A stretch of DNA of 64,000 nucleotides from Psammoneis japonica (Eukaryota), in NCBI GenBank assembly GCA_008632985.1, contig QPGO01000021.1:434001-498000 (forward strand), read 5' to 3'. Below the pieces are notes generated by a model. That model did no database searches and had not been told where the DNA came from. It saw nothing but the letters and a program-made list of their open reading frames with translations. Positions 1-48,636 of this stretch are shown here, one piece after another (position 1 is the first letter of the stretch; each line of letters starts with the position of its first letter). The translations under genes were made by a program, and so were the position numbers.

Positions 1-175
1 TCTTGCTCTTTGTTGCTCTTCGGAAGAATGAGTGAAGCAAACGAGAGAAGAGCAGAAAAAACCGTCATTTGCTCGCCAAGTTCGCGCAAGCACGTTCAAA
101 TTTGAATTCAAATGGTTTGCATGACCCAACGGTCAAATGCGGGTCATTTGCCTCGTCGCACTGCACAAGGTGGGC
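1..175 (-). repeat. Split direct repeat, copy A2 (truncated by window edge)
   Basis: Gap-free match to 6017-6191 with 6 mismatches (positions 21, 66, 67, 113, 120, 154). Confidence 0.95.
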
Positions 176-384
176 GGCTCACGCCGCCCGTCTTGTTCCT
201 TCTCCTGCGGCTCTCTAGCGCCATCTAGAGATCTTCCAATGATGGACTGGAATGGCTTTGCTGGCAGATGTGCAAGCCTCATTCCCAAAAACCCAAGCTG
301 GAACGGCAGGGCCTTCCAGCAACCACCCACAGTGCCGTGCACTTTTGGGAGGGTGGGTGGGTTGAGGCAGGAAGGCTGTGGTGA

Positions 385-1503
385 TCAGGCGTCTTGAGGA
401 TTTTGAGGGACGTCAGCATTGGGGTGGAGGACGAAGTCGCCACCGGCGAGCATGTCGCGAGCGAAGTTGCGCATGACTGGTTCTGCTTGCAAGTGCAGGT
501 GTCGCAACATTTCGTCGGATCGCCAGCGGCCTGAGAGCCGAATGAGATCGGTGTCTGCGCGGGCACAAAGGAGGGCCATTGCTCCGGCGGCACGAAGACA
601 CCGAGCGGCAACATCTCGGGTGGTGAAGCCGAGATTAGCCGGACCGAGAGCAGTGACAGCATTGCGCAGCATGCTGGTGATGTCAGCCGGGAACACACGA
701 CGCCAGGTGTTGTTTTGAAAGTGAACACCAAGGGGTGTGTCAGGGAGCGCACCGTGGGTGCGCAAGTGTTGGACACGGCGGATGAGGGCTTGAACCGGGC
801 ACAGGTGGGGGTGACCGGAAAGACCAAGCCCTGGAACTTCGCCTCGCACTCCATTTTTCTGGGTGGCAAAGGTGAGAGTGGCGAAGTCTGCTGTGTCAAG
901 GTGTGCAAGTGGAACTTGCATGGCACCCAGGTGAGCACCACCAGACGCAAGCCGGACATCGGCGAGACGAAAGGGGGTGGTGTCTGATGGTGTTGCGGTG
1001 CACTCGCCAGGCCGTGACAAGAAGAAAAAGGCAAGTGCAATCATTTCAGCAATGGCTTGTGTGCCCGGGTCATTGCTGAGGGCTGCGGCGGTCATAATCC
1101 ATTGCAGCACTGCAATTGGGACCGGTTTTACGCGGTCTGGGGGTGGATCCTGCTTCTTGTAAAAGCGGACTTGCCGGGTGAGGTGGAAATCCATTGTGCC
1201 TTGGGATGTGTGGCGTGGATCCGGGGACCCCATTGCAGCGAACGTTTGGCCAACCGAACGTGCGGCATCTTCAGCGGTTCTTCCACGGACGGGATTGCCC
1301 ATCGGCGCGAGGACTCCTGTGCGGTGTCGGTGCAAGAAGACTTGGAGGAAGACAACAGGGTCGTCAACGTCTTCGAGGAGTGGGTCAATGGCCAAAGAGG
1401 AGCAGAACTCTCGCCATTTGTCCCAATGGGTGTTGGCGGCGGAGGCTCTGGAAGAGGTGACGCCATGCTGGACTGCGCGTTGAGCAGCATTGAGATCACG
1501 CAT
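385..1503 (-). pseudogene. Tyrosine recombinase of Ngaro element; catalytic Tyr mutated to His
   Basis: Motifs FFFLSRPGEC (cf. FFFLLRPGEY), TFATQKNG, ARCLRAAGA, GRWRSDEMLRHLH (cf. GRWxSxxxxRY); codon CAC at 499-501; only 1 Tyr in 372 aa. Confidence 0.9.
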
Positions 1504-3365
1504 GAACTCAGTTCTGGTGGAGGCGTCCAGAGACGCCAGGAGAGTTTCTGCAGACAGTGCAAATTAAAGTGGTGCAAAAATTCACGGTTGGACAAAGACT
1601 GCAGTCGTGAGGCATCGTCAGCGGCAGTGTTGAGGCATCCAGGCAGGTGGTCATGCAACCCCAAGTGGCGATGGCAGCGTTGATGGCAGGATTGGCATCG
1701 AAGCAACCGGGAGGCGGGTTTGACGGCAGTGGTGGCACCTTTACGTTGCCAACACATGGTGCCTGAATTGTCGGTGTGTGAAAGACTGGCACGTTCACGG
1801 ATGTCAAAACAGTCGGCGGCGCCGAAGGACTGAATGACACTGCCGGCAAGTTCCAGGTCTGTGTTGGTGATGGGACCGCGTGGGTTGGAGAAAGTGGAGA
1901 GTTGACTGCTGACACTTTTGGGAAAGGGCAGTCGCCACACTGCAGGACCCGCATCTCTCTGTTGACAGCGTCTGCAATTGCCAAAACGGAGAGTGGCTGC
2001 TCTGGGTGCTGTGGCACTGGTTGGCAGGAGGACGCCGCCTGCGCCGTGACCTGCAGCATCATGACAGCCAGTGAGTGTTGGTTTGAGTGGAACCAATTCT
2101 TGAATGCGAACGGGTCGGGCGTCTAGGGTAGATTCTAGATTCCGAAAATCATCTGGTGCGCAGTGCGCATTGGCGGAGATCCGGACGCGTGAGTCCGGTG
2201 TGGTGTGTCGGAGATTTTCTTGGAGTGCTGAGAAGAGACCCCGGGAGCCAGGGACAGCAATGCTCAGAGAGCGTAGCTCTCCCAGCAATTTCTGACAATC
2301 GGAGATGGCAGCACGTTTACGTGTGCGGGGGAAATCCTGGTGCAGCATTATGTGAAGTCGGGCACGCCGTCGGGGCGCAAGCCGGATGGTCGTGGCGCGA
2401 GCATCTATGAGCCAACCCAGGACTTCTTTCTGCGTGGACCATGTGGCATCACCCTGGCGGAGCTTCTTGATGGAGACGGGCTCTTTGCGGGTGGCTGGGT
2501 CATGTGCATCGAGTGGGCGGAAAACGTCATCGAGAACATGCAGCATTGCATGGTGAACGTTGCGACGGGCTTGTTTCGAACCTTGCGCAGCGCCGAGGAA
2601 GTCGTCCACATAGATGTCGATGCATTGCAAGCGGCGGCACCGACGCGGACGGAGGTGTGGGTCGGGCGCATTGGGAATGGGCACGGCCTGGGAAGCTGCG
2701 GCAACTTGTGGTGGTTGGTGCTTCAGCGGGCGGCTTTCTAAAAGCGATTCCAGTGGATGTGGCGGTGCTTGGACGTTGCGCACCAAATCCAAATTGGCGA
2801 TGTCAGCGACAGTCTCCGTTGCTGTGCAGAACAATGGCGGGGAGTTGGCCCAGCCCATGGGCAAGCGTGTTGGGATTGCAACCAATGGTGGTTCGCCCGG
2901 TTGGTTCGGGAACACTGCACCAAGTGCAGGAGCCTGTTCTGGCGCAACTTGCATGCAGTGACAGCCATCAGCCAAGACGATCTTCATGAGATAGACCGTG
3001 CCTTTTCTGGGATCGGCAAGTGGGATACGGCGTAGAAGGCGGTCGAAGGCACGTCCAAATTGCATGGCTTCCATTGCAGCGTTGGGTTGCGTGGAAGGAT
3101 TCAGCCCATGACAGGCACAGTCTGCAATGGGGCGGGGACGTCGACCATGTTGAGGCACCACGCCAATTGGGCTCAGGCGAAGACCGGGGGTGTGACGCAC
3201 TTCCTCGTAAGGGATGACAACCCAAAAACCCTTCTCGACCACATCGGCCATGTCTTGGCGCAGAAACTCGATGTGTTCGTAGGCGGATTTGTGTGGACCC
3301 CTGGAGATGCTGGCGTCTAGCTCAGCATACGTCCATGGTGCATCGGCGGCGGTGATGGGGGCACC
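1128..3365 (-). pseudogene. Reverse transcriptase / RNase H of Ngaro element
   Basis: LSPIGVVPQ..RRPRPIAD, LPMGWANSPPLFC, IYVDDF, KEVLGWLID, DAAGHGAGG, TNTDLELAG, HTDNS, NTAADDASR. The frame continues upstream of 3251 (..RGPHKSA..FLRQDM) to a TGA at 3366-3368 that is probably CGA>TGA. Confidence 0.9.
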
Positions 3366-5921
3366 TCAGTGCTTGCAAGTGCTCAGCAGTCGGTGAGCTG
3401 GGTGTTGCTTGACTCGGTGGAGTGGACCCCAATCACCTCTGCCGCTGCAATGACGTGACAAGCAACTGAGACCTTTACGACGCAGTGACGCAGCATCAGT
3501 TCGCATGTGCTCACCTGGTTTGTCATTGTAGATTGCGGCAGCAACATCCTGTCCACGGGTGGTGGGGCGGGTGCGCTGCCTCTTGAAATTCTCCACAGTT
3601 GGGGGTTGTGGACGCGATGGCGCGTCGACCATCGCGGATGAAGGCTCTTGGCTCCAAGTCCCCGAACTTGGGCCATTGCCGAAGACCTGTTCGGTCTTCC
3701 AGTTCTCCTCACCCCAGGTGAGAAGGGTGGCCTGTTCGGCGTCTGTGTGGTCATTGCGATGATCATGGGACGAGCCACAGTTGGTGTCACATTGCCCTTT
3801 GTAATGGCAGGGAAAGCAACGAGGACGACCTTGGGCATCTTTGGGAAGTTCGATGTTGTCCCTTGCGCATCGGTTTTTGACATCGCGTGACCTGACGTTG
3901 GGGCGGTCACGAAGGTTGGCGAAGCGGTCATCACAAGAAGGGTTGCGGACTACGCTGTTGCTCCCTGCGGCTTGACTGATGGGGGGCATGTTGGCAGGCT
4001 GGTGTTGAGTTGCCGGGGCCGGTGCGGCTCCCAGCACAGAACTGGGGCTGGCAGCTTGCATGCTGGCGGGCAAGTGCGGGCGCCAGCACATGATTCCTTT
4101 AGCCGCTTCAAACACAACGTTCAATGGTGAGAATGGAAGCGGGTGAAGGGAGGCTTCTTGAGCCTTGAACCAATGGCGGACTTCAATCTGCGCACAGCGT
4201 TGAAAATCCACGGGAAGGGTTGGGCACCCAGCAGCCTGTGCTGCCAACTCATTGGCATGCCGGTCCATGTCTTGACGTTGACGGGTGAGCCACTGGACAA
4301 CTGGATGGTTGGCTCCAAGTGAGGCAGAAAGCACCAGGTGGTGTCCATCGCAGGACTGCTGAGCGGCTTGCATTGTCGTCGCCACGAGCGCCTTGTCTGG
4401 TGCTTCCAGGATCTGCGTGTCTTGGAGGGACGGGGCCACAGCGCCGCCATGAATGTGCATGTACATGGCCTTGCGACAGGCGATCTGCTCGGCACTGTCT
4501 GGCGTGGCAATCCCAAACTGGAATGGGGTGATGCCTTGGGTTGGCTCGTCTTGATTGTGACCAGCAAAATCGAGCTGTACGAGCTTGGTGACAAGGCCAA
4601 CCGTGACTGGTGCGTCAAAATGAACGGCCATCGCCTGGCGTTGCTCGTCAATTGCATTTTGGACGACTGTCAGGCGGCCTGTCTTAGGCGCTGCGGCAAG
4701 GGCGGCCCACACAGGCGGCAGTGCTGTCTCGTTGAGGGCGTGGCACCAATTCATGAGCTTGGTGACACCAAAAGGTCCCCAGAACTCATTGGGAACCTTG
4801 CCCCGGGCAGCCGCTTGTTGACGTGCGGCAGCGTCAAGTCGGAGTTGTCGTTGTTCAGTGGTGAGCTCTTCAATGGCCTGCACAACCGGCTGGAAGTGCT
4901 GCGCGGTGGGTGGTGCACGACCCAGTCTTCCAGGGATGTCCCGCTCCACCTTGGCATCAAAAAATTGAGTGAGGGCTTCGTCAGGGGGGCGTGTCATGAC
5001 AGGCCAAGGTCGCGCCACAACAGATGCCACTTGGTTGTTGGGAGTGGCACAGCAGGCGACGCGCAAGAAGTCGAGCAGTGGTCGGATGGCAGCCACCTTG
5101 TCAGCTGCCGCAGCGGCGCCGTGCACGCGCTGGTGGGCTTGTTTGGGATGCAAGGGCTGTGCCAACAAGAGCGGCACGGACTCAAATGGCACGTGCATTG
5201 CATGTCGTGTCCGCACGACCTCCGAGTTTGGTGCATCCTCAGCCAGATGCGGATGCAGGCCTTCCGCATTGTCAGTGACATGCTCCAGGAGTGCGGCGTG
5301 GGTCGGTGCCCCAGTCCCCTGCTGTGCCAAGTTGAATGAGTCGTCCCCGAATTCGACCAGGGTAAACTGTCCACGGGTTAGGTCACCTGCCATTGCGTGC
5401 GTCTCACCGTCCCAAGGTTCGGCAGGTCCAACCACGGTCGTCGGATAAGTGGTGACGCGGTGCAGGACTTGGATCTGTCCTTCGTCCGCTGTGCCGTCCT
5501 CTTGGCAGTGTGTGATGACTGCCATCGGCTGATCGTGACTTGACGCCGCTGCAACTCGCCCATGGAGTGACCCGGGGTTGTGTCTCGAAGGTCCCTGAAC
5601 CGGAACCGCGAAGTCTGGCATCGACTCATCGCATGCCCCCCGGTGTGGGTCGTCAGCGGCTGTGAGGTAAAAATCCCGATGCATCGCAATGACCGGCGGC
5701 ACTGCCGGCACGGCTTGTGCACCCGGTGGCGGTGGCGGCACGACGGCTCCTGCTGCTTGCGGTGCCAACGGAGGCACCGGGACTTGTGGAGGAGGAGGTG
5801 GGGGAGCGTTTTGGGCTGCCGCGGCAGCTGCTGCAGCTCCTCTTTGCGGTGGAGCAGGGTCGTTGGCATTTTGGGCGTTCTGGGCCCCTTGTCCTGCGTT
5901 TTGCTGCTGTTGCGCATCCAT
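3366..5921 (-). pseudogene. Gag-like ORF1 of Ngaro element (reads through into the pol N-terminus)
   Basis: Long ORF with Pro/Ala-rich N-terminus and a Cys/His cluster (CFPCHYKGQCDTNCGSSHDH) near its C-terminus; same frame as pol; lies directly after repeat A1. Confidence 0.8.
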
Positions 5922-6016
5922 GATGGACTCACCAAAGGTTCTTCCTGCGAACAATGGGGAGCTGCGGCGGAGGCATCCTGCGCCGCGTCGACAGCGTTAA
6001 AAACTGTCTAGCGGCT

Positions 6017-6191
6017 TCTTGCTCTTTGTTGCTCTTTGGAAGAATGAGTGAAGCAAACGAGAGAAGAGCAGAAAAAACCGTTGTTTGCTCGCCAAGTTCG
6101 CGCAAGCACGTTCAAATTTGAATTCAAACGGTTTGTATGACCCAACGGTCAAATGCGGGTCATTTGCCTTGTCGCACTGCACAAGGTGGGC
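6017..6191 (-). repeat. Split direct repeat, copy A1 (5' end of the Ngaro element at 6191)
   Basis: Match to 1-175 stops abruptly after ...CACAAGGTGGGC at 6191. Confidence 0.95.
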
Positions 6192-11131: not shown

Positions 11132-11136
11132 GCAAG

Positions 11137-11414
11137 TGACAGAAACTGAAGGCAAATGGCAAGAATTCAAACTACAACTCCTCACTGCTGTCTAAATGGC
11201 AGATGAGTCTCCGCTCAGAGACCGTCACAGGAGCCAAAAGACGTGCAAGTCAGCACAATCGGGCCACTGTTGTCATTCTTGTGAGCCGTGTGGCTTGAAA
11301 GCAAACTGCATTGCGCGCGCACGCGTGGAACTAAAGAGCACACAAAACTGTGCACGGCAAACTAAACAGCGCGTGACATTTCGCGCACACCTGAATCCTG
11401 TTCAAATCCTGTCA
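11137..11414 (-). repeat. 3' LTR (278 bp)
   Basis: TGACAG..CTGTCA inverted termini, adjacent PPT and TSD; 11248-11414 aligns gap-free to 15483-15649. Confidence 0.92.
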
Positions 11415-12390
11415 CTCCCCAGTTTGCTTGAGGAGTCACAGAAACAGATTCGACTTCGGATGGAATGAAGTTCCAAAACATGAGGGGACAGAGAAGGTCC
11501 CAGATTTGGGAGCAACCCCAATGCTTGCTGAGAATGTCAGCAGGGTTGCAGGAGCCTTCGATGAAGTGGAGCTCAAGGTGACCAGAGGCAATCACCTCAC
11601 ACACACGATGGAATGACAGAGCGGTGTGTCACTTGTGTAACTTGGAGTGCGGGATGGTGGCACTGTCCACAACCGACTTGTTGTCACCAAACACGTCGCA
11701 CACTGGGTGCACTCGGATCTTCTTGTGTCCCGCAGGAGGAGTGGAAGACTTGGAGGGCCCACAGTCATGAAAGACTTTGCATTCATCGAGTTGGTCCATC
11801 TTGAGATTGGTTGCATCTCCCCATTTGCGGTTGCCGTTGCGTTCGTCTGGGGACATGGCATGTTTGCAGTTCCGGGAAACTTCACATCCACACTCACAGC
11901 GAGGTGCAGTGCAGAAGGAGCAAAGCTTGGCTTGGTTGGCCATGCGGAACAGCTTCTTCTGGCGCCTCGCGATGGTGCGGAACCGCTTCCAGCCATCAGC
12001 GTCGAGAAGTCCGTTCTCTCGTGCATAGATGGCGCAGGTGACAGGGTCATCCTTGGTGATGATGGCAAGAGGCTCGGACATGATCTCCCCACTTTCCCAT
12101 TCAAGCATGATGTTGCAGCTTGAGCCTTTCCAGGTTGGGTCATGAGGCTTCAGAGGTCCTTCATGTGACACAATGTGTTGAAATTTCCAAACAGCAGTGT
12201 CTTCGTCTTCTTGCTCAATGTGATTCATGATGACAGAGCAGACGAACTCAGTGAACTTGGGGTTGCCATTCACTTTCCAGTTGTGATCTTCAATGGCCTT
12301 GACGATGCGAGCTCTGTGGCATTGTCCATCCTCTTGTGGCTGCATGAGGAAGGTGCGTCCAATGATGTCTTGCAGATCAAAAACTGGCAT
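11362..12390 (-). pseudogene. Copia pol remnant: post-integrase region fused to RNase H C-terminus (RT deleted)
   Basis: DIIGRTFL, WKFQHIVSHEGPL, EWESGE..EPL..DDPVTCAIYA.ENGLL..GWKRF, GHKKIRVHPVCDV joined directly to FGDNKSVV..PHSKLHK*HTALSFHRV..NPADILSKHWG. Confidence 0.9.
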
Positions 12391-12498
12391 CTTGGGTGTC
12401 CTGATCTCCCCACCAGGTGAATCGACGGGGTTGTCGTCATGGCGAGATTTGATGATGGGTTCAGGTGGCTCCCCATCAGGAGGATCAAGACGCAGGTT

Positions 12499-14528
12499 TC
12501 AAATGGAAGGATCGGTGGTGGTGGATCGTACATTGGACCGGCAGAGGATCTTCTGAGTGATGGCGATGCACTGCAAGCCGTTGGGCACCTTGACAGAGCG
12601 ATCGTTGACATCGTGTTTGTGCCATTCGAGCTGGCCACAGGAATGAATGGTCTTGCCCTTTCCCGTGTGTGCGCGCTGGTGGAGGATGGCGATGACGGGA
12701 CCATGCTGTGTCTCTATGACAGCACCAGTGGTGACAATGGGGATGTCCACCAATTGATGGTCGTCAACACCCTGAACGTCGACTTGGCGAGAGGTGTGTG
12801 CAATGACGCGAACGTCGTCACCAGCAATGCCGCCGTTGGCTCCACGATCAACTAGAGCACCAGTGCATGTGGAGCGATGAGCAGAGGCAGAGCAAATGAC
12901 ATTGTGGTTGTCAACGCGGCGGCAAGTGCGGCCGTTAAGTTCCATGTCATCTGGAGGAGCAGGCGAGGCAGAGGGAGCGGCGGATGGGCCCGGTCGACTG
13001 GCTTTGGGGGCTTGGTTAGGAGACAACAGGCGTTGCAGATCACCGGGTGGTGGTGGCTTGTGCTTGGTGAGATGCGCTAGAATGGGATTGTCTGAAGTGG
13101 CACCCACATTCGGAGCGGGATCACCAGAGTCAGCAAGAGTCATGGCGGACAAGTTGACATCACCGTCACTCCCAAGTCGTTGGTCGTGAAGGTTGACCGC
13201 AACGGACTCATGGCAGTTGCCGGCTCGTGGGTTGCAAGGAGGCGGCCGAGAATGCCCAAGGATGATCGCCTTGGAGGAATTGGGCAACGAATCCCAAATC
13301 CGTTGGTGGTCGGGAGGGAGACGTTTCCATTGGTTGCCGGTGAGGCTGGGACCGCGGGTGCAGGCAGCGTTGGCCTGAAGGACGTCAATGTTGCTGTCGA
13401 TGTCACAGAACACATCATCGGATGGTTCCTCGGAGCAGACGTCATGTGCGTGTGTGACGCGGCAGGGAGCTTGAGGTGTCGTCTTGGGTTGAAATGTGCT
13501 GTCGCATTGAGCCGCCGCGGAGAGGAGCAAGCCACAACACTCTTGCCACTCTGCGTGCGATGTTGATCAGCTTGGTTCTTGACGGCGAGGAGTTCCTCGA
13601 CAGGATGTGCGGCATTCTCGAGCATGACGCGCTTCTGTCCTTCAGAGAAGTGGTCACTGGCTGGGATGAGTGCCTCGCATTTGCGCAACTGATCCTGCCA
13701 ATGAAGGATGAACCCGTGGGTCGGACCTTTCCAAGTGCCATCACCAAGGCGTGTGGTGGTGAGGTGCGTGAGCAAGGTGGAGGACTCGATGGATGCGTGG
13801 GTGGAGGCAAGTGCATGCTCGGACAAGGCGCGGCAGATGGTCTGGGCATCAGAAGACCCCACATTTTTGTGAATGAGAGCCTTGCCCTTGTCGGTGAGAA
13901 GGATGCGTTCAAAGACAGCGAACATGCACTTTTGCTGTTCAGCAAAGAGCAGTTTGTCTTCGGGGCTGGTCGGTTTGTACGACGAGTCTAGAATGCACTC
14001 GACGTCTTGGGCACGGGCTCATGCCACAAGTGAGGTGTGCCAAGTGTGCCACTGCTTGTCGGATTTGAGAGCCGTGAAAGCATTGGGGTCATGCTTGATG
14101 CCTTGCTTGAAGTCTCGCACTGGGTCGCGTGCCTTGGTCAGGATGGTGACATGCGGGGGTGCAAGAGGTGAGCTGCCGACGGACACAGAAGACATGCAGT
14201 CGGGGCTGAGGCGGTGGGAAAGGAACTCATCATGCGTGAACAATGAGGAGTCATTGGCAACATCAAGGCCTTTGTGTGTTTTGACAATGTACAGACTAAC
14301 TGGAGCTGCCAACATGTTCTCACAACCTTGGGGCAATGGGATCACATTGGTGCCGTTGTCACACTCAAGCGAGTCGATTTGGGAAGGCATGAACGTGAAC
14401 AGTTCTTGGCGCGAGTCCATGCCGTCATGGGTCAAAGCCAAACAAAGAGGGCTTCCAGCACCTTGGGCAAGCATGGTTCCAACAACGTGCTCGAAACCAT
14501 TGGTTTGTTGCTGACGAGTGAGAACCAT
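12499..14528 (-). pseudogene. Copia gag-protease remnant
   Basis: FKQGIKHDPNAF..KQW..W, A*ARAQDV (internal stop 14019-14021), MFAVFERILLTDKGKAL, FILHWQDQLR, MLENA; frameshift near 13530; protease LVDRGANGGIAGDDVRV and TIHSCGQLEW. Confidence 0.88.
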
Positions 14529-15482
14529 GGCAGACAAAAAACGGTGTCAGGGCAAGTGATTCTTGTCAGGACGTGGAGGTGGACTTGAAACTTGAGTGGG
14601 AATGGACTTGACTTGAAATGGACTTGACTTGAAATCTTGAACTGTCTTAAAATCAGAAGTTGCCGGGTTGTGCTGTCCCATTCATTGTCAAGTGCTAAAC
14701 TTCCCATCCGGTCCGCAGAGTTGTGCCGGCACGTCCGAACCCACAGCCAGCGGCGCTTTGGGTTGCTTGCGAGCAGAGCAGTGGGTTGTAAACCCCTGCA
14801 GGCAAGCTGACTGGAGGTGGACAAGACCCCCGAACCGTTCTCATTTTATGTCAGTTGGATTTCCCGATCAGGCTGGCCAGTTGACGCAGGCGTTGGGCGC
14901 TGTGGACGAACGAACAAACGCGGGAAAACACCCTCGCCCCAACGCAGGCTGCAATCACGGCCACTTGCTCTCACAGTCGTCCTCGTGGACCTGGCAGAAC
15001 TGCAGAGCACCAGCAGTCCGGGGCAGATCAGGTGCAAGAGACTCGGTGTGCCTGTAGAGTGGTGGCAAAGCCGCAGTCCAAAGAGTGGGTTCAAGTTCTT
15101 GGCCGTGAAGACACACACACACATGTCTTCAGCGACGAAGATCTTCGAATGTGTGGGGCTCTTGACCATTGACCGTTGAATGGGTGTGTCAAGGGATGAG
15201 GATCAAGGACAGACTTGGACACAACCGTTGAATGTGTGTCTTCAGCGACAAAAGGCAGCACAATCAATCCAGACATCCAGCGGTGAGGAGAGTTGACGGT
15301 GACGTTAAATTCCTGCCAATGCCTGGCATTGAATGCGCGTCCCGCAGACTTGCCGATGCACACATGGGGCACATGCGGAGGTCCACGCAGAATTGAAACA
15401 GCATCGTCGGCAAATCAACGACGACAATGGCGGTTGCTCAATGGGTTGACAATGAGCAAGACTGTCAATCTTTTTTTTTTTC

Positions 15483-15649
15483 AGTCGGTGCAATCGGGCC
15501 ACTGTTGTTGTTCTTGTGAGCCGTGTGGCTCGAAAGCAAACTACATCGCGCGCACACGCGCAGAACTGAAGAGCACACAAAACTGTGTGCGGCAAACTAA
15601 ACAGCGCACAACATTTCGCGCACACCTGAATCCTGTTCAAATCCTGTCA
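15483..15649 (-). repeat. 5' LTR, truncated after 167 bp and followed (minus strand) by A11
   Basis: Aligns to 11248-11414; T11 at 15471-15481; the part equivalent to 11137-11247 is absent. Confidence 0.9.
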
Positions 15650-15654
15650 GCAAG

Positions 15655-18600
15655 CGCAAGAGCAACGATGCATGCAATCAATTCATTCCATCCTCAGCTG
15701 TCTGCTCCAATTTGGGTGGTCCAGGAAGCACGTCATTGGCTCTGGGTGTGTCAGGCACCATGGTGTTGGATGAGGGTGTTCTGCGGGAGTGTGTGGTGGG
15801 GGAGGTGCGCGAAGCGTGCTTGGTGATGGGGAGAAAAAGGGTGGGCCAAAAGTGCAGACAGACGGTCGGGATGAAGAGTTGTCAGTGAGAACAGGATGGT
15901 GGATGAGTTGATCTTGGCATGAGGAGAGATGATGAGAGAGGGTGCAGCTGAAGTTGAGGCTGAGGATTTGAGAAGCCCAAAGTTGAGGTGCAGTGGTGTG
16001 GTGGGAGGAGCCAAAACGGTCAGGAGAAAGTTGTTTCCAGGCCAAGTTGGAGTGGACGAGGACATTGGAAGGGGCAAGCAGTGAGTTGGTGAAGGCGAAA
16101 AAGGGCGCTTGGGAGTTGGAAAGGGTGGGTGGGCTTGTCCAAGGTGGCTTGGGTGGGAGGGGTGGGGTGGAGGCGGATGTTGAAGCAGAAGTGCCAAAGA
16201 AGAAGATGTGAAAATGACACCCGATTCCGCCAAGATGGTCAAAGGTGAAGGGGAGAACTGGGGATCACACACTCAAGTTTGAGAATGCAGCAAATGGAAG
16301 ATGGCTAGACTCTTAGTGTGTTTTCTGCACACAACAAATGCGGGCACTTGCCCATCGTCGTGTGTCATTCTGAGTCACGAATGGTGATTCGTGGGCAAAA
16401 AAGGTCTGAAATCTGTCCTTTTGAGAATGAAACAACACGGTGAAGTGCGGGTCACCATGGTGCTCTTTGAACACCAACATGTCAAAATTCAATGGGGCAC
16501 ACGACTGCGTCTCGACCGCAATTAAGCTCAGCAGATAAACTTGTGCTTGCACAGCCATGAGACGCTTTCATGCGCCCCATTAGATTTTGAGATTGTGGCA
16601 TTCAAAGAGCGCCATGGAGCTGACGGTTTTTTGATGTTTTTGTGTCAGCAATGATTTCCCTGTAGAAACCCAGCACAATCGCATGCGGGTCATTTCAGAA
16701 ATCTCTTGGATGCAAATTTAACATTTCTCAACAGCAGTTGATGCAATGTGCGGCACAATCAAGAAAATGCCAAAAAAGACTGACCCCACCAAAGCTGCGG
16801 CATGCACTGCCATGTGTTGTGCAAAGGAGGGGAAGTCTCTTTGTCTTGCAAAGGTCAGCCAAGACGTGAACGAGAAACATTTTGGAAATCAACAGAATTG
16901 TGGCGGACACAATGAGCCAAACCACGTGCACTGCTGATGAGCCTTGGTTGCCTCCACCATTTTGAGAATGGCCAATGTAAAGAAAGGCAACTGCTCTGGC
17001 TCCAAAAACAATGAGCAGCCAACCAAGGCTTCATTGGATGAGTTGCAATGAGCGGGAAGTCGTGAGAACTGGCATCTTTTTGTTTGGCATCATGGCTCAG
17101 CACAAGTTTTGGTCTGCTGCCGAATTTGTGACAAGCGGGAAGACACAAGAATTGGCACTGTTGTTCAGCACTAGTTTGGCACTGTTTGCCAGCACAAGTT
17201 TTGTGCCATCTGCAATTTGTGAAACTTCATCCTTGTCCAGCTGCAGGAGTGAACCTGGTGCATTGTCCCTGGGACTCGCCGTCATGACCTTCCATTGCAG
17301 AATTGTTGCTGTGGGTGAACTCAAGGCCAGCCAAGTCGGCATCAGCAGCACCGCCAAACCAACAGTCTTTGCGAATGGATGCCATGTTCCCATCATTGTT
17401 GATGGGAGTGCCGTGCCACGTTCCCCAATGCCGCTGCTGACAGCATTCTCATCACAATGCTTGCAATGTGTGCGAGGCTGCACAAGATTTTGATTGCATG
17501 TGCGGTCACCGTGCAAGATGTTGCAAAGATGGGTTCCAGTCCTGGGTGGGACTCCGTGTGACATTGGGCCCGCAGAATTCCATGTGCAAGCTCCTCAGCA
17601 AATTTGCTCTGCAATGAAAATGCAAATGATTGCCAACAGAAAAAGAGGCAATTTTACGAACGCATCTCCTCCTCCACACTTGAAGCACATCATTGACAGT
17701 TTGCATGGGCATGTTCTTCAGACATCAAAGAACACACCCAGCACATTTTCATTCTCACAAATGTTGAAAATAGAAAGCCTTTGGCTTGGCAAAACAGGGA
17801 GCATGAAACACAATTTCGGAGAACACAACACATAGAAATGCACATGCGCAACATGCAATGCAATCCAAAAAACCATTGATGTCACAGTGCAGCAGTGCGA
17901 AGTCCCACCCAGAGCTGGAGCGCATCCAAACACAGAACAACACACAATGAGGTGCGGTCTGTCCAACCTCACATTGCTCCCAGACTTCAGTGCGTCATCC
18001 CTGCAAGGGGAGAAGGAAGAGTCTGGCTTGGTTGATGGCGTCGATGATGTCAGAGTTGGGAGCGGATGGTGCAGAGCAACCGAGCAGCTTGATGGACCAG
18101 CTGCGCTCTCATGGTTTGGCCGGCCAAGTGGCTTGCCTCGCAGGGAGGGACCCGGAGAGGTGTCTCGCAGTCACATGAAAGGTGCACGTCAACCAGGCAT
18201 TGTGTGCCAATCAGGGCCTTGAAGTTTGAGTTGTTTTTTGGAATTTTTTGAAAAAATGGGACCTCGTTGGTCTGTGAAAGGAGGAGCAAACGGAGCGTGA
18301 TTTTTCAAACCGGATGGATGGGTCTGACTTTTGTGGACCAAGTGCAACACATGAAGATGGATGAGGAAACAATGGTTTCAGGGTTCTGTCTGTGCTGCGA
18401 TGCATGGAACACCGATCATGAAGTTGAGACCAAAATTCAGAAAAAGAGCTCATGACACACCACACAATTGCATGAAAGCACAAAGGTCTCCAAAATGGTT
18501 CTGCAGATTTTGTTGTCATTCGCTCATGTTGTGCAGCTGAGTAAAAGAGGTGTTTTGGAAACAAGAAAAGTGGGGGGATTCTGACTCGTTTTCGAGATAA

Positions 18601-30990: not shown

Positions 30991-32180
30991 CTATCTAACA
31001 TCCCTACGGTACCAACACTCTCTACTAGGGCCTAGAATAGACCCCACAGCACCCAAAGTACTCTAGAGACCGCACTCCACCCTATAGAGATTAGGGGAGT
31101 AGCGGCTGCTGGTACAGCAGCTTCTCTCTCTGTCATAGTCCGATCGTTCGAGAGCGAGAGGTGGTAATTTTCATCCTGAAAGGCGCTGGGATTTTCTAGG
31201 TACTCAAGAGAAACTAAGTAACTTTTTCTAAGAAAGCTCCGCTTGATAGTTTCACTTCTTGATGCAAAATGCACCACAGCTGTCTTGCACACCAGGGGGG
31301 CAAGGGTAATGCACGCAGCGTTCCCCTTGTGGACAAAACGTCCCAAGAAATCCATCACAACTGTTCTTTGTGGGCTTCAGACAAACTCCTTGAGGACACG
31401 TGGAAATGTCACCGCAGTATTTCTTGCGGTAGCAAACCTCACCTTGGTTACATTGGTTCGAGTCGCTGCAAAGTCTGTGGCACCTACTTTGTCGGTATCC
31501 AGCAGAAAGTGCTACACAGAGATTGCTGAATTCACACTTGGCACCGCATCTAACAGGATCATATTGCAAGGTGCAAGCTGCGTGGCCGGGTACTTCGCAG
31601 CGGCGTTGACAGGCATTATTCTTGAATGTGCACTTGTCGATACTCCTGCAGTTCCTCCTTGACGAGATCTCTGATTCCGAACAATCATAATCCCTTTCAT
31701 TCACACAGAGCTTATCCTCACGTAGCCAACGACATCCATCCTGCTCAAATAGTAGGCAGGAGCGTCTCTTTGACAGATCCGAACACGAATTGGGCTGACA
31801 CGGCTTTCCAAAAGGTGGGTATCGAAATTCGTTGGGACCACGAGCAAGTTCTGTACCACATGTGTAGACATAGTCCCTCGTGCTCGCGTCTAACTTCGTG
31901 ACCACCCATTCCCCTGTCACAGAACAACATTTCGCTCCACCTCGAGGCATGGCTTCGGGTTCACAGCACTTTTGTTCGTCGACACGACGCCTTTGATCGA
32001 ACGCTTCCACATTTTGTGATGCATGAGCTAGTGGAAGACAGAGTAGGAGGATCCATTTCATTGGGGAAACACACGAAGCTTCAATAACAAGTTATACTCT
32101 ACTCTATTTTGTAATATTCTCATTGGTGGGAATGCAAGTCGTCAATCTAATCTTACGAAAATACCCGTTGTCAGTTGAAT
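30991..32180. repeat. Segmental duplication, copy 1 (~1.2 kb)
   Basis: Colinear with 35417-36588, including gene, promoter side and 3' flank. Confidence 0.92.
31252..32061 (-). CDS. Secreted Cys-rich protein with a Kazal-like module (paralogue 1)
   Basis: Signal peptide MKWILLLCLPLAHA; C..ACTLQYDPVRCG.KCEFSNLCVA..AGY; ORF conserved in the second copy. Confidence 0.85.
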   Translation of the reverse strand: MKWILLLCLPLAHASQNVEAFDQRRRVDEQKCCEPEAMPRGGAKCCSVTGEWVVTKLDASTRDYVYTCGTELARGPNEFRYPPFGKPCQPNSCSDLSKRRSCLLFEQDGCRWLREDKLCVNERDYDCSESEISSRRNCRSIDKCTFKNNACQRRCEVPGHAACTLQYDPVRCGAKCEFSNLCVALSAGYRQSRCHRLCSDSNQCNQGEVCYRKKYCGDISTCPQGVCLKPTKNSCDGFLGTFCPQGERCVHYPCPPGVQDSCGAFCIKK

Positions 32181-35100
32181 GCACGTCGCGTTGTTTTCGA
32201 AACAAATGTTTTTTTGTCGTGCACCTTGATGGTGCTTGATGGTGCACCGAATCGTGAATCGTGAATCCAACTGTAGGACTGTAGGTAAGGTTACACGCAA
32301 ATCGTCGTGGACGAAGTTCTGTGTGCATTGTGGCCGTTGATCTGCAGCACGTCGACTCCAGAGACTGCACAAAATGAACGAACATTGGTGTGACCGGAGG
32401 GTTGATCATCGTTGACACATGGCATGTGGTGCTTCCACTTAATGACAAGAGGTGATCAGTGCACTGCATCTTGTTGCCGACAAAAAATCTGCAATGATGT
32501 TCATGAAGGACAACAAAGATGCATGCCATGAGAATGTGTCTGAGCTGTTTCAAAAGGAGCCGGCTCTTTTTCTTGCCTGAGTCATTGATTCTCTTCAAGT
32601 GTGCACTGCAACACCATTTTTAGCTGCAACACATCAACAAGAACAAATTCCGTCTGTGGCCAGACTTCGTCACCCTCTTTGTTTGTTCCAGCGCCAAAGC
32701 GATCATTTGCAACAACTGCGGGCTGCCGATGCAGTTGCTTTTGGAAGCTGGTCCTGACCCACAACTGTTTCTCACCATCGTCAACAATTTTCAATGTGTG
32801 CTGGAAAGAATGGAAACAAAACAGTTGAGAAGGCAAGTTGCAGCACTGAAATCCAAGAGGGAGCAAAAGGCTGCTGCTTGCCTGACGCCCACTCCTGTCA
32901 ATCCAAATGCACCAGTCATGACTCCTGAAGAAACAAGACAGCAAATGGTGTGGGGTCAAGACATGGAGCTTTGCACTGGTGGGCTTGTTTCCAAATTGAT
33001 GCAGGACTTTGACAACACAGCACGAGATGCACTGACTTCTTCTGTGTGGCCAATGGGCATCACTTTCCACTGACGGCACACTGGATGTTGAGATGCTGAT
33101 CACTCTGTTGAAAAAAAGAAGGATCATGCACATGGCACATGGGCAGCATCAGTTTCTTTGACAAGAGCACCAAGATCATGCATCAAAAACAAAGACCGGG
33201 TTGTGGTGCTTCACATCTTCTTGCTTCTGTGTGAGCGCAATCAATGCTTCCCCTCAGGAATGTTGCACTCATCTTTGAATTTGCCGGCATGGTGCATGGT
33301 GCTTCCACCTCATCACAAGAGGTGGTCAGTGCACTGCATCTTGTTGCCGATCAAAAATCTGCAACAACGTTCATGAAGAACAACAAAATGCATGCCGGAG
33401 AACATGTCTGAGCTGTTTCAAAATGAGCTGGCTCTTTCTCTTGCCTGAGATGATCGCCAACGTGGACAGCAATTGTCCGAGAAATGCAACATGCAAAGCA
33501 ACCAGTTCACAATTGCAATGAATGGTGTTGCTGTCTGAGAATGCATTCAGACATGGCAAAAAGGTGTTGTTCTGAAAAACAAGGATGGAGCCAAGTTTGA
33601 AGCATTAGAGTTGGTTGACAAGGATCCCTCTCAGTGCTGGGCAAAATGTTGTGCACGCCAAATGGATTCTTGAGCAAGCAACATCTTGACAATCTCACCA
33701 AGTTTTGAGTGCAAAGCAAGCAAGTGTCCCAAGCTGGCTAAAAGGCCATCCATCACCCACCCGACACAAGTGATTCTGCCGCCTTTGAGATGTGCATGGA
33801 TGGCATCTCAGTGCAAGTGAGTGATGCACATTGCTTGCAAAGTCCTTCACCAGATGCATTCCAGCCCTGTTTTTGTGACATTTGCTCACAGAATTCCATG
33901 TGCGTGCTCTGATGTGTGCAGCTTTAGAGTTGATGGATGCATTTGTCTTCAGCATCCAAACAAACAAACAATTTTGCAGTGCTGATGCACCTCCCAACAT
34001 GCTCAAAGTTTGAAAAACACACCTGCCCTGCAGAATTCTTAACACATTGGAGAATTGTGCAGAAGAAAAAATGGCAAAAGTTGTTGAATGAATTGCCCAA
34101 CAATGGCACTGCAAAATCAAAAATCAACACAAAATTTTGCCAAAGTCACGTAGACTAGAAATGTGTGTGCATGACATGTGGTGCAATCCAAAAAACTGTC
34201 GATGTCACAGTTCAGTGCTGCGAGGTCCCACCTGGAGCTGGAGCGCATCACCAGTTTGGAAATCACAATGTCCTTGGAGAGCATTTGCTGCAACAAACAC
34301 TTGCCCCACTCCACAGTGAGCTGTTCCGAATGAAGGAGAAGATCCATGAGGAAGGGCTCATGTGGGGAAGGGTTCCATCAAGAATGATGTTTCTCGGCTT
34401 CAATTTATGGAAATCATGCCCTGCAACAAAATGATGGAAAGAGTGTTTTGAGTGTTGGAGGCAATTGGAAGTTTGGAAGCAGATTCGCAAGGTGCAACTC
34501 ACACCACAGACAAGACAGCCAATTGGAGGCAATGTTTGTGCACGGTGATCAACTTGCAATCAAGCATGTCCAGACCATGGTCAACAAGCTGATGAAACTG
34601 GCCATTGAAACCAATGACCCAGGGTCTGATCAAGCTTTTCTAAATGCCATGGAATCTGTCCACCAGCCAATTGGCAACCTCTGCACAAACATTTACATTG
34701 TTGCCGGCATCTGTCTCCATTTCTGTGGCATCCAACCAATCCAGGCAGCGCACTTGGGTGGACCCGCATCCAGTGGAACACTGTTCCAAGACACAAGCTT
34801 TCAGCAAAAATGCTGGTGTTGATCCATGACCAACTGAGCCATTTGCTTGTCCAGAAATGGACAAAAACATTGACACCAGAGAGCAGTGTGAGATTGGTGC
34901 AATGCTCGGAAGTTGAAGACATCAAAGAACTTGCTCGCAACAGCAGCGACTCTACATCGACTGCACTGCACAAGGATCTAGCCAAGCAAAACTCACGGAC
35001 CATTGTGCTGACATTTGTTGTCAGCCTCGAATCATTCGCAAAGAAAAAGGAACAGTCAAAGGACGCTTGCGTTCGGGTTGCCATGCAACTCTACGAGGAA

Positions 35101-35416: not shown

Positions 35417-36588
35417 CTATCTACCATCCCTACCAACACTCTAGAGAGTAGAGAATAGACCACACAGCACCCAAAGTACTCTACTAGAGACCGCACTCCA
35501 CCCTATAGAGATTATAGGGGAGTAGCGGCTACTGGTACAGCAGCTTCTCTCTCTGTCATAGTCCGATCATTCGAGAGCGAGAGAGGCGCTGGGATTTTCT
35601 AGGTAGTCAAGAGAAACTAAGTATCTTTTTCTAAGAAAGCTCCGCCTGGTCGTTTCACTTCTTGATGCAAAATGCACCACAGCTGTCTTGCACTCCAGGG
35701 GGGCAAGGGAAATGCATGCACTTTTCCCCTTGTGGACAAAACGTCCCAAGAAATCCATCACAACTGTTCTTGGTAGGCTTTAGACAAACTCCTTGAGGAC
35801 ATGTGGAAATGTCACTGCAGTATTTCTTGCGGTAGCAAACCTCACCTTGGTTGCATTGGTTCGAGTCGCTGCAAAGTCTGTGGCACCTACTTTGTCGGTA
35901 TCCAGCAGAAAGTGCTACACAGAGATTGCTGAATTCGCACTTGGCACCGCACCTAACAGGATCATATTGCAAGGTACAAATTGCGTCGCCGGGTACTTTG
36001 CAGCGGCGTTGACAGGCATCATTCTTGAATGTGCACTTGTCGATACTCCTGCAGTTCCTCCTTGACGAGATCTCTGGTTCCGAACAAACATAATCCCTTT
36101 CATTCACACAGACCTTATCCTCACGTAGCCAACGACATCCGTCCTGCTCAAATAGTAGGCAGGAGCGTCTGTTTGACAGATCCGAACACGAATTGGGCTG
36201 ACACGGCTTTCCAAAAGGTGGGTATCGAAAATCGCCGGGACCACGAGCAAGTTCTGTACCACATGTGTAGACATAGTCCCTCGTGCTCGCGTCCAACTTA
36301 GTAACCACCCATTCCCCTGTCACAGAGCAACATTTCGCTCCCTCTCGAGGCATGGCTTCGGGTTCACAGCATTTTTGTTCGTTGACACGACGTCGTTGAT
36401 CGAACGCTTCTGCATTTTGTGACGCAAAAGCTAGTAGCGGAAGACTGAGTAGCAGGATCAATTTCATTGGGGAAACACACGAAACTTCAATAACAAGTAA
36501 TACGCTGGACTCTATTTTGCAATTTTCTCATTGGTGGGAATGCAAGTCGTCGATCTAATCTTACGAAAATACCCGTTGTCAGTTGAAT
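35417..36588. repeat. Segmental duplication, copy 2
   Basis: Colinear with 30991-32180; both end ..CCCGTTGTCAGTTGAAT. Confidence 0.92.
35655..36467 (-). CDS. Secreted Cys-rich protein with a Kazal-like module (paralogue 2)
   Basis: Near-identical to 31252-32061 with the Cys pattern conserved; signal peptide MKLILLLSLPLLAFA. Confidence 0.85.
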   Translation of the reverse strand: MKLILLLSLPLLAFASQNAEAFDQRRRVNEQKCCEPEAMPREGAKCCSVTGEWVVTKLDASTRDYVYTCGTELARGPGDFRYPPFGKPCQPNSCSDLSNRRSCLLFEQDGCRWLREDKVCVNERDYVCSEPEISSRRNCRSIDKCTFKNDACQRRCKVPGDAICTLQYDPVRCGAKCEFSNLCVALSAGYRQSRCHRLCSDSNQCNQGEVCYRKKYCSDISTCPQGVCLKPTKNSCDGFLGTFCPQGEKCMHFPCPPGVQDSCGAFCIKK

Positions 36589-36698: not shown

Positions 36699-38186
36699 TT
36701 AGCTCGTCGTTGCCATGAATTGGTTCTCGAGGCTTTCAAATGGTTCCGGCACCAAGAACAACAAGTGGTTTCCGTTTGGACGAGTCTCCACTACACCTTT
36801 GTATGCCGTTCTTGGTACGCCTGCCTTTTCATCCGTCATGATTCCCAACAATTTCGACTTTGCTTTGAAATCCTTCATTGTCTCGTAGCCCAATCGAACA
36901 TTGCCGTCCTCGGAGAGTTTCTCTGCTTCTGCGACGGTCGTAGCCTGGACTGTGTTCTTAATCAAATTCCAGTACTCGACATTGAACAGTTCTGGATTTT
37001 GCAAAGTTTCAAAATCTTGATCTCGCCAGTTCACAGTCTGGTCAGTGTTGAGCTGCACTTCGCTGAGTTTTCCACCAAATTGATTCATACTAGCACCTCC
37101 CTTTGACCCAAAATGGAAGGTCCGTGATATTTCTGGCCGGAGAATCTGGCGTCCCTTTCGTTGCGGCGGTTCTCGAAGCCAGTCATCCCAATACGCATCT
37201 GGCCACTTTTCCTCGAGCTCGCCCCATATGTCTCGATTCATGAGCCACCCAAGTCCTGGGAAAAAGTCTGATCGTAATACACGTGTTGCATTCTTAATCT
37301 TTCCTTTCAAGCCATTGTCATTAAATGCCGAAGCAGCAAGAAGATTATTCTTGGGGTTATCCAACAACGGTGCCATGGCGCTCATGTAGTCAAAAAAGTC
37401 GGGCGCAACCTCAATGTCTTCCTCCAAAATTATGACACGCCGAGGCGGTGGATAAAGCTCCTTGTCAAAGTATGACTTGCCAATTTCGACATAAGACCCA
37501 GAAAACACGTGTCGCAGAGCCCAACCATAGTGAACAGCAAGTTTTTTATAGGATGCAGTTGGCCCTCGCAAATTAGTCTTCAGCGGCTCGTGTGTCAAAT
37601 GCAACAGCGGCACATCGACCGTGGCAAATTTTGCTTTGTACTTTTCAATTACCTCTTGCACTCCAGAGTTCGTTCCATCTTGAGATACGACAATAGGACA
37701 ACCCATGTTGCAGTGGTGTGACACAGTATTGAACACCTTCTCCAAGGTTCTTGCCAAGTATTCACCTCTCGAACATGTAAATATCAAAAGCGGAGACTCA
37801 TATTTCTTGAGATAATAATCTACCACGTGTCCTTGCTTTAATTCAGCCAATCTCTGTGCTTTTGAATGTGTATGGCTGTCCCCGAGTAGCATGTGTGGAC
37901 TTATGTGATCCGTCGTCGTATCCTCCTGCTGCTCATCACTTTTTGTTACGAGAAACACCATGGCACCCACAAGCCACAGTATAACAATTACTGAAAAGAT
38001 CAGAGCCATAGACAAGCCATTGAACGGACCTTTCTTTGGCTGCTGCCTTCCTTCACGAGGGGTGATGCGTGCCATGTTGTAAAATGCTGTGTGTGTCGAA
38101 TCGTCAGCCGTCAGCAACGGTTCCTGCCCTTCGTCATTGCCGATGACTGATTTTCTGAAAAAAAATGTCTGCATCATCTTCTGCAA
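36699..38186 (-). CDS. MGAT1: Alpha-1,3-mannosyl-glycoprotein beta-1,2-N-acetylglucosaminyltransferase I (GT13); start may be the ATG at 38075
   Basis: Type II TM anchor; VSQDG, IILEEDIEVAPDFFDY, SAFNDNG, RSDFFPGLGWL, YWDDWLR, RPEISRTFHFG. Confidence 0.95.
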   Translation of the reverse strand: MQKMMQTFFFRKSVIGNDEGQEPLLTADDSTHTAFYNMARITPREGRQQPKKGPFNGLSMALIFSVIVILWLVGAMVFLVTKSDEQQEDTTTDHISPHMLLGDSHTHSKAQRLAELKQGHVVDYYLKKYESPLLIFTCSRGEYLARTLEKVFNTVSHHCNMGCPIVVSQDGTNSGVQEVIEKYKAKFATVDVPLLHLTHEPLKTNLRGPTASYKKLAVHYGWALRHVFSGSYVEIGKSYFDKELYPPPRRVIILEEDIEVAPDFFDYMSAMAPLLDNPKNNLLAASAFNDNGLKGKIKNATRVLRSDFFPGLGWLMNRDIWGELEEKWPDAYWDDWLREPPQRKGRQILRPEISRTFHFGSKGGASMNQFGGKLSEVQLNTDQTVNWRDQDFETLQNPELFNVEYWNLIKNTVQATTVAEAEKLSEDGNVRLGYETMKDFKAKSKLLGIMTDEKAGVPRTAYKGVVETRPNGNHLLFLVPEPFESLENQFMATTS

Positions 38187-38554
38187 AGTGCCTCCACACG
38201 GACAAAGGACGGGCGTGCGTCGTCGGGCAAGTGCGTGCTGGTCGGACGGATCGGTGGAGCTTGGAGCCTGGAGCTGCCGACCAACACTTCGTCCTGCCTC
38301 TATCTACCTAGGCCTCTAGCTATCAATAGAGAGGAGACTAACTATACCACTTTAGTGAGGGTAGACACTATCAGCATGCTGCGATGCTTCTTCCGCTATC
38401 TGCATCTAATCTGGCGTGAAGTAGTTGGTCCTTACCTTGAGACTCTTAGATCCAAGGTATTTTGCAGTATAGTGACATTAAGATCTTTCCTTATGCCTTT
38501 AGCTAGCTACAAACACAATTTGCTCGTTAGCATGATGTGTCTTTGTTCTGTACC

Positions 38555-48280: not shown

Positions 48281-48636
48281 GCATGGTTGGTTTGTTGTGG
48301 ATCCCTAATGGCAAGAACAAGATCATGTTAGTTTGGGGTGAAGAAGTCAATAAAATGTCGCAGTTTGATTAGATTTACACTAACTTGAGGAGGAGAAAAC
48401 CAACTAACAACTGGTAAACAAGGACTTAGTATGAATGATCGGTTCTTCGGTTATATCGTCAGCTGCACTCATTCCATTTTGAAACTATTTCACGCTTTAC
48501 TCACATTTTAAGCTGGTTGCGGTTTGTATGTGCAATTTACAATTACTTTTACTCTAGCTAGAGTATTTCGAGATGTACACATTCAACTGCACCGACACAA
48601 AATAGAGATCAGACATGGCCACAACGTCCATGCTTA

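Follow-up and report, generated by a model that had tools for sequence, protein, structure and literature searches.

Transition-only divergence between the long terminal repeats of a dead Ty1/copia element in Psammoneis japonica and probable TpA-directed hypermutation of the surrounding transposon-derived DNA

The DNA analysed here, hereafter referred to as the window, is a stretch of 64,000 nucleotides (nt) from Psammoneis japonica (contig QPGO01000021.1 of assembly GCA_008632985.1, positions 434,001 to 498,000 of the forward strand), which holds eukaryotic genes, two retroelements, a solo long terminal repeat (LTR) and four domains strongly depleted in the dinucleotide TpA. The element under study is a Ty1/copia retrotransposon at 11137-15649 (element 1), the two LTRs of which differ from each other exclusively by transitions. 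The spectrum of these differences, the composition of the DNA in which the element lies and the fate of its conserved codons point to mutation of the inserted copy at TpA and, more slowly, at CpG. The parts of the element and the solo LTR used for their delimitation are as follows.

11132 to 11136, no strand: left target-site duplication GCAAG, read directly from the sequence; it adjoins TGACAG and is identical to 15650-15654
11137 to 11414, minus strand: full LTR of 278 nt, TGACAG...CTGTCA, the 3' LTR in sense orientation; the third copy at 54515-54763 aligns with it end to end
11415 to 15482, minus strand: interior of a Ty1/copia element with internal deletions, from tblastn against homologues
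15483 to 15649, minus strand: shortened LTR of 167 nt, the 5' LTR in sense orientation, from alignment to the left and third LTR copies
15650 to 15654, no strand: right target-site duplication GCAAG, read directly from the sequence
54515 to 54763, plus strand: solo LTR of a related subfamily, from alignment; about 76% identical, with a 28-nt deletion

The left LTR is placed at 11137-11414 because the third copy aligns to 11137 and both read TGACAG...CTGTCA; the alignment of this solo LTR with the left repeat runs past 11248 to 11137. The first-pass annotation, made from the letters of the sequence, had described an LTR pair bounded by a perfect GCAAG target-site duplication. The duplication is indeed perfect, but the repeat at 11248-11414 is only a part of the 278-nt LTR and the right LTR is shortened, lacking about 111 nt that are present at the TGACAG side of the left LTR, with a T-run (15472-15482) at the break. 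In other copies of the family found in an independent run (X1), the internal position around 15468-15471 is joined directly to 11137, the TGACAG start, and the loose ends at 15471 in runs X1-X4 continue into the LTR start in other copies. Contigs from an independent run span both junctions of the element, with 0 and 1 differing letters. A second GCAAG, at 11245-11249, was considered as the target duplication and rejected as a chance second occurrence, the LTR extending to 11137. A single insertion is concluded because the perfect 5-bp target duplication sits at the true LTR ends.

The 5-bp duplication and the TG...CA ends of the LTRs are those expected of Ty1/copia, and the minus-strand open reading frames (ORFs) match polyproteins of about 1900 aa with 38-68% identity, PF07727 (RVT_2) being carried by homologues of about 50% identity. 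According to tblastn against the 1924-aa homologue P0001, the polyprotein residues retained are approximately 18-712, 1105-1421 and 1831-1904, and the integrase and reverse transcriptase (RT)/RNase H segments have been deleted from this copy. The reading frame is interrupted by three in-frame internal stops, all of them TGA, and by one frameshift near 13540. Pfam recognised no family on the ORFs of element 1 or of the second retroelement (element 2), even at an E-value of 10, and a protein atlas gave weak leads for the ORF 11629-12498 (scores of at most 0.84, with a single cluster each for Bacillariophyta and RVT_2). Element 1 is a dead, internally deleted Ty1/copia copy derived from one insertion. 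It resembles the diatom Ty1/copia elements of the CoDi type in its short LTRs, its ends, its target duplication and the RVT_2 polyprotein of its relatives, and differs from them in the loss of the integrase and RT/RNase H segments and of part of one LTR.

The direct repeat formed by 11248-11414 and 15483-15649 (167 nt, 90% identity) aligns without gaps and contains 17 mismatches, all 17 of which are transitions, with 0 transversions. The differing dinucleotides are five CA/TG doublets, which account for ten of the mismatches, three CA/CG, two CG/TG and two TA/TG. All mismatches lie at pyrimidine-purine dinucleotide steps (YpR): 17 of the 98 YpR positions differ, as against 0 of the 69 non-YpR positions, and the probability of finding 17 of 17 at YpR is 6.2e-5. 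The first-pass annotation had counted about 17 mismatches, without transversions or indels, and had described all of them as YpR swaps; both statements hold on recounting, and all three of the examples it quoted are present. The Kimura two-parameter divergence of the pair is 0.114, to which non-YpR sites contribute nothing.

A gene duplicate within the window (30991-32180 and 35417-36588; 1.2 kb, 91% identity) shows 38 transitions and 29 transversions, and therefore the transition-only spectrum is not general for the DNA of the window; with the transition share set to 38/67 from this duplicate, 17 transitions out of 17 have a probability of about 6e-5. The window has one further LTR pair, that of element 2, an element described by the following rows.

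1 to 6191, minus strand: second retroelement, with direct repeats at 1-175 (cut by the window start) and 6017-6191, from repeats and homologues
3366 to 5996 and 1128 to 3365, minus strand: ORFs of the second element, 876 and 745 aa, with one TGA between them

All six mismatches of this second pair are likewise YpR transitions. Differences between TpA and another dinucleotide number two in the first pair and one in the second, and those between CpG and another dinucleotide five and three, respectively. The further proposal of the first-pass annotation, that the changes arose after integration and far faster than background mutation, is thus supported by the single insertion, by the confinement of the differences to YpR positions and by the agreement of the second pair.

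The composition of the window was profiled in 500-nt bins and divided into domains by two-state segmentation, dinucleotide values being expressed as the ratio of observed to expected. TpA is bimodal in these bins, with values of either 0.0-0.15 or 0.3-1.0 and sharp borders. Four TpA-poor domains, which together occupy 31.4 of the 64 kb, were delimited.

1 to 21500, no strand: TpA-poor domain 1; TpA 0.08, CpG 0.58, CpA 1.64, TpG 1.62
32301 to 34900, no strand: TpA-poor domain 2; TpA 0.06, CpG 0.32
43301 to 48300, no strand: TpA-poor domain 3; TpA 0.04, CpG 0.14
53801 to 56100, no strand: TpA-poor domain 4, which contains the solo LTR; TpA 0.05, CpG 0.22

In these domains CpA and TpG stand at 1.6-2.0 and the G+C content at 0.47-0.53, and the genic domains have TpA of 0.53-0.65 and CpG of 0.91-1.05. 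The identified retroelements and the solo LTR are located in two of the four TpA-poor domains. Element 1 (TpA 0.10, CpG 0.74) and element 2 (TpA 0.15, CpG 0.83) are poor in TpA while retaining much of their CpG, whereas the older relics in the window have lost both, and therefore the loss of TpA precedes that of CpG.

The TpA steps that survive are not a random sample. Comparison of the TpA-poor with the genic DNA gives 0 versus 174 occurrences of ATAT, 3 versus 194 of ATAC/GTAT and 48 versus 106 of TTAA. Among the surviving CpG, GCGC is kept most and TCGA least. Since the flank rules of TpA and CpG survival differ, the loss of CpG is most likely a second, separate process. The depletion also alters the supply of stop codons: on both strands of the TpA-poor domains there are 109 TAA, 71 TAG and 1432 TGA triplets, and with TAA and TAG nearly absent, long ORFs open by chance (for example 45451-46512 and 47031-48236). 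The latter, of 401 aa, was treated as spurious, its protein-atlas recognition score of 836 marking it as unrecognisable.

The same losses can be read in the coding sequence. A set of 120 homologous polyproteins was projected on element 1, and columns with at least 30 aligned residues and at least 70% agreement were used, giving 370 columns. Conserved tyrosine is kept in element 1 at 2 of the 20 columns concerned, compared with 298 of 350 for all other columns (Fisher P 2e-12), and the residues found at the 20 positions are Cys (12), Tyr (2), Trp (2), His (2), Arg (1) and Phe (1). Other residues have been spared, tryptophan being kept at 12 of 12 columns and glycine at 31 of 33. The homologues themselves retain tyrosine well, with a median of 90% of 48 Tyr columns. 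Element 2 keeps 1 of 7 conserved tyrosines, the replacements being Cys (2) and His (4). Conserved TAY codons now read TGY, CAY, TGG or CGC in 17 of 20 cases in element 1 and in 6 of 7 in element 2, and changes of CTA to CCA and of GTA to GCA are present too. Conserved arginine has become His, Cys or a stop at 6 of 28 columns in element 1 and 4 of 32 in element 2. Single-step transitions at conserved columns are located at TpA or CpG in 36 of 42 and 23 of 25 cases, respectively, counts that are somewhat inflated by the assignment of ambiguous ancestral codons to TpA or CpG first. One of the Copia homologues, P0079 (1888 aa, from ENA), keeps 31 of 48 conserved tyrosines, with Cys or His at 13 of the 17 positions where tyrosine is lost; it may represent partial hypermutation of a copy in a different organism.

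Other copies of the family were examined in run X1, in which 8146 contig pieces lie on the element at a likeness of at least 80%. The summed contig depth is 2e4-3e5 over the element and 64-72 on its flanks, a figure that reflects many related pieces and not copy number. Compared with the copy in the window, the family copies show 345 places with transitions and 50 with transversions. Among the 40 of 414 variant places listed, 39 are transitions, 28 of them at YpR, and one row pair mixes a transition with a transversion. At 12116 the window reads TGC (Cys) and 96% of the other-copy depth restores TAC (Tyr); at 11849 it reads CCA (Pro) and 80% of the other-copy depth restores CTA (Leu). Other copies therefore still hold TpA that has been lost from the copy in the window.

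Relatives of element 1 are abundant in aquatic metagenomes, and 79 related Copia loci from this source have TpA at 0.49-1.15 of expectation. No change of Tyr to Cys or His was found in these 79 loci, for which the scan patterns contain Tyr. Comparison of the sequences indicates that the TpA depletion of the window copies is a product of mutation and not of inherited composition, because the 79 related loci have normal TpA and lack the tyrosine changes. Six of the loci (L074, L076, L001, L002, L032 and L040) combine CpG of 0.16-0.25 with normal TpA (0.49-0.70); such CpG-poor, TpA-normal loci carry the ordinary signature of methylation without the TpA process. Terminal direct repeats occur in 18 of the 79 loci. 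Ten of the 18, being 100% identical and placed at contig ends, were taken for assembly overlaps and one further repeat, of 65% identity, was rejected as an LTR, leaving seven usable pairs; these show 88 transitions versus 56 transversions, not bound to YpR, in assemblies that are possibly chimeric.

The account that we favour with good confidence is that of one Ty1/copia insertion followed by two context-specific transition processes acting on the chromosomal copy. The first would very rapidly turn TpA into TpG or CpA (A to G on either strand); it would be about 90% complete in element 1 and confined, with sharp borders, to transposon-derived domains. The second, slower process would be a decay of CpG to the same two products, which would by now be about 20% complete within the LTRs. 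On this reading the 17 differences between the LTRs resolve into five single CpG decays, two sites at which TpA persists in one LTR and five CA/TG doublets, most of which would go back to an ancestral TpA that was hit on one strand in the left LTR and on the other strand in the right. A model in which each TpA is converted with probability q per copy, TpG and CpA being equally likely outcomes, was fitted to the LTR pair (one TA/TA, two TA/x and five doublets) and gives q = 0.91 with about 12 ancestral TpA; the independent estimate from codons is 18/20. Duplication alone is not the trigger, the 1.2-kb duplicate and a tandem array at 49816-50495 lying in DNA of normal TpA with mixed substitutions.

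Several observations weigh against this account or soften it. The roughly 12 ancestral TpA that the model requires within 167 nt are a rather high number. A conserved Gln codon has become TGA, and at four internal CA/TG doublets 71-100% of the other-copy depth is on one state; therefore some of the doublets arose in two steps from CpA. Among the 40 of 414 variant places listed, 10 are transitions outside YpR. The solo LTR, which would serve as the outgroup, is itself saturated and cannot polarise the 17 LTR sites; it reads TG at both TA/TG sites, where parsimony would mean a gain of TpA. The metagenome comparison is biased, because patterns containing Tyr would miss hypermutated relatives, and the inflation of the codon counts mentioned above belongs here as well. 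Finally, in the closest known system, that of Bigelowiella natans, the hypermutable regions are reported to have no raised rate of G/C to A/T, while CpG in the same domains of the window is reduced to 0.14-0.58.

Among the other explanations, we regard the decay of methylated CpG alone as improbable. It would derive the CA/TG swaps from CpG deaminated on opposite strands and would treat the TpA poverty as unrelated and inherited. Five of the 12 differing dinucleotide sites are indeed plain CG/TG or CG/CA differences, CpG is depleted in the same domains as TpA with an excess of CpA and TpG, CpG flanked by A/T is lost first, and many Copia relatives in other hosts are poor in CpG (down to 0.16) with normal TpA. 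Two papers describe DNA methylation in diatoms as mainly CpG and on repeats (PMC5124317) and the CpG methylation of diatom repeats (PMC9998398), and a study of wheat, an example of LTR divergence inflated by the deamination of 5-methylcytosine, reports raised transition rates at methylatable sites of transposon LTRs (PMC2996936). The transition/transversion ratio of the wheat transposons, however, is 2.8, whereas the LTR pairs of the window stand at 17:0 and 6:0. The origin from CpG is certain for just 5 of the 12 sites. The LTR pair has 10 CpG intact in both copies (CG/CG) and five in one (CG/x), corresponding to a decay probability of 0.2 per copy, at which 0.31 CA/TG doublets are expected and five are seen (P 1.9e-5); the joint fit to three classes gives a chi2 of 8.5 (P 0.004). 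With the CpG-only fit rejected, another process must yield the CA/TG and TA/TG differences. CpG decay cannot remove TpA, and it leaves unexplained the TA/TG differences, the fall of TpA to 0.04-0.08 of expectation and the loss of conserved tyrosine, mostly to Cys or His, at 18 of 20 positions in element 1 and 6 of 7 in element 2. Inheritance of the low TpA is opposed by the TpA-normal relatives and by other copies in the same genome that keep TA at the same sites.

Editing before integration, either of the RNA (ADAR- or ADAT-like A-to-I editing with a 5' U preference) or of the complementary DNA, so that copies would be born hypermutated, is rated slightly lower still. It could account for a bias of strand: the changes in Tyr codons of element 1 are A to G on the sense strand in 14 cases and T to C in two (binomial P 0.004). 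That other copies of the family keep TA, so that the change is made copy by copy, is also in its favour. In element 2, which like element 1 lies on the minus strand, the ratio is the opposite, two A to G versus four T to C (Fisher P 0.025 against element 1); the absence of a constant bias towards the sense strand argues against RNA editing. Same-strand TpA conversions also show no clustering along either element (runs tests, P 0.76 and 1.0). The TpA signature has been reported to appear de novo in the chromosomes of clonal B. natans lines (10.64898/2026.01.13.699255). The depletion of TpA is moreover just as complete in the solo LTR and in 20 kb of non-coding relics, in which CpA and TpG are both raised. 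As both LTRs are copied from a single template, editing before integration would leave them identical, and the two TA/TG sites and five two-way doublets that separate them therefore point to change of the chromosomal copy once it had inserted.

Modified bases can give systematic transition-like miscalls, which is the point in favour of an artefact of assembly or base calling. Such an artefact, or a selection against UpA and CpG in transposon RNA of the kind that a study of RNA viruses documents as CpG and UpA suppression (PMC3829696), is very improbable: the independent-run contigs match at both junctions and the same kind of variation recurs among thousands of pieces, a TpA loss of about 95% across 31 kb with sharp borders is no error pattern, and selection would spare conserved tyrosine and would not act on dead relics.

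If insertion was followed by the two chromosomal processes, the first would be an enzymatic deamination of adenine in DNA that protects against mobile DNA, in line with the proposal made for B. natans, and the second would be the deamination of 5-methylcytosine in methylated transposons. The comparison with B. natans draws on the preprint of Mettrop et al. (bioRxiv 10.64898/2026.01.13.699255), the one matching report that a full-text search yielded. In mutation-accumulation lines of this alga, the mutation rate of two integrated viral regions is reported to exceed that of the remaining genome about 1000-fold; of the 231 changes in these regions 230 are A to G or T to C, each of them at a TpA. 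The genome contains 124 clusters of windows poor in TpA and rich in CpA+TpG, and its TpA-poor coding sequences are enriched in reverse-transcriptase and DDE/transposase domains; the defence suggested by its authors is the deamination of adenine in DNA by an ADAT2-like enzyme (10.64898/2026.01.13.699255). The likeness to the window extends to the conversion of TpA to TpG or CpA according to strand, to the restriction to foreign or mobile DNA beside normal genes, to clusters poor in TpA with depleted reverse-transcriptase sequences and to a rate orders of magnitude above background. Under the thresholds of the preprint (TpA of at most 0.43 and CpA+TpG of at least 1.52 of expectation per 1-kb window, three such windows or more forming a cluster), 25 of the 64 windows of 1 kb are TpA-poor; they form runs of 7, 7, 3, 5 and 2, and one stands singly. 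The two systems differ in that TpA in the viral regions of B. natans stands at 0.45, as against 0.04-0.08 here, where the targets are LTR retrotransposons; in the flank rule seen here, with ATAT gone and TTAA spared; in the nature of the evidence, which is comparative here and comes from a mutation-accumulation experiment there; and in the host, which is here another organism with genes in long uninterrupted ORFs.

A further comparison is with repeat-induced point mutation (RIP) of fungi. Fungal RIP changes C:G to T:A mostly at CpA, enriches TpA and is triggered by duplication. A description of RIP is given in PMC2621366. Like RIP, the processes proposed here riddle transposons with transitions in a dinucleotide context, kill their coding capacity and leave compositionally distinct domains. 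In contrast to RIP, A:T to G:C is the leading change here, TpA has fallen 10- to 20-fold, and the duplicate of 1.2 kb, with 91% identity, has escaped the process. No diatom report of TpA hypermutation or of a RIP-like process was found in the literature searched, subscription journals lying mostly outside that search.

To our knowledge, targeted TpA mutation of foreign DNA in eukaryotic chromosomes had not been described until the 2026 preprint, which deals with a single chlorarachniophyte. Psammoneis japonica probably represents the second known host of this hypermutation. With somewhat better than even confidence, we propose the wider view that a defence by TpA-specific A to G hypermutation of DNA is not peculiar to one chlorarachniophyte: it would act at saturation on LTR retrotransposons of a diatom-like stramenopile, would be ancient or recurrent across the stramenopiles, alveolates and Rhizaria (SAR) as a functional mirror of fungal RIP, and would follow a flank rule of its own (RTAY hit, TTAA spared) beside the decay of methylated CpG, the two together clearing silenced DNA of both self-complementary YpR dinucleotides. 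If confirmed, the presence of the process in another, unrelated alga would suggest a widespread genome defence with a natural DNA adenine-editing activity.

Such a process has practical consequences. Transposon copies can be dead by missense and yet carry long ORFs, because TAA and TAG vanish, and annotation pipelines and gene callers would over-predict genes in TpA-poor domains. The warning of the first-pass annotation that dating by LTR divergence would be inflated in this genome is well founded, as all the divergence is confined to YpR steps, and the inflation can amount to orders of magnitude. As an illustration with rates borrowed from B. natans, a TpA loss of 90% would take about 2e5 generations, as compared with a naive estimate of 1.6e8, an inflation of about 800-fold. 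A map of TpA and CpG would also, if this reading is true, mark silenced foreign DNA without annotation.

The remaining features of the window are summarised briefly. The homologues of element 2 reach 62% identity and some carry PF00078; its relatives are of the RVT_1 type, and its family is distinct from that of element 1. A comparison of 240 transposon proteins with the window gave matches confined to the two elements. The solo LTR at 54515-54763 is flanked by CCGAT and CCCAT, which match at four of five positions. The eukaryotic genes encode GNT-I, a GH47 mannosidase, a bestrophin and a PHD-finger protein in long uninterrupted ORFs (534 aa for GNT-I and 822 aa for the PHD-finger protein), and the named best matches of GNT-I are all from diatoms, with 49-53% identity. 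The protein collection searched contains nothing nearly identical to GNT-I, which favours as host a diatom or near relative absent from that collection and argues against B. natans. The copies of the gene duplicate at 30991-32180 and 35417-36588 flank TpA-poor domain 2 and are not hypermutated; the intact GNT-I gene adjoins at 36699-38303.

Several smaller repeats were also noted. The array at 49816-50495 consists of tandem repeats with offsets of about 96, 144, 189 and 378 nt and 90-92% identity, and lies in an ORF-rich region of normal TpA. An inverted repeat at 16455-16617, in TpA-poor domain 1, has arms of 59 nt that are 80% complementary and spaced by 45 nt. A 94-nt repeat (34156-34249 and 17833-17926) is shared between two TpA-poor domains; its copies differ by 18 transitions and two transversions, and 14 of the 18 transitions form seven CA/TG doublets, as saturation predicts. 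The sole N of the window is at position 45876.

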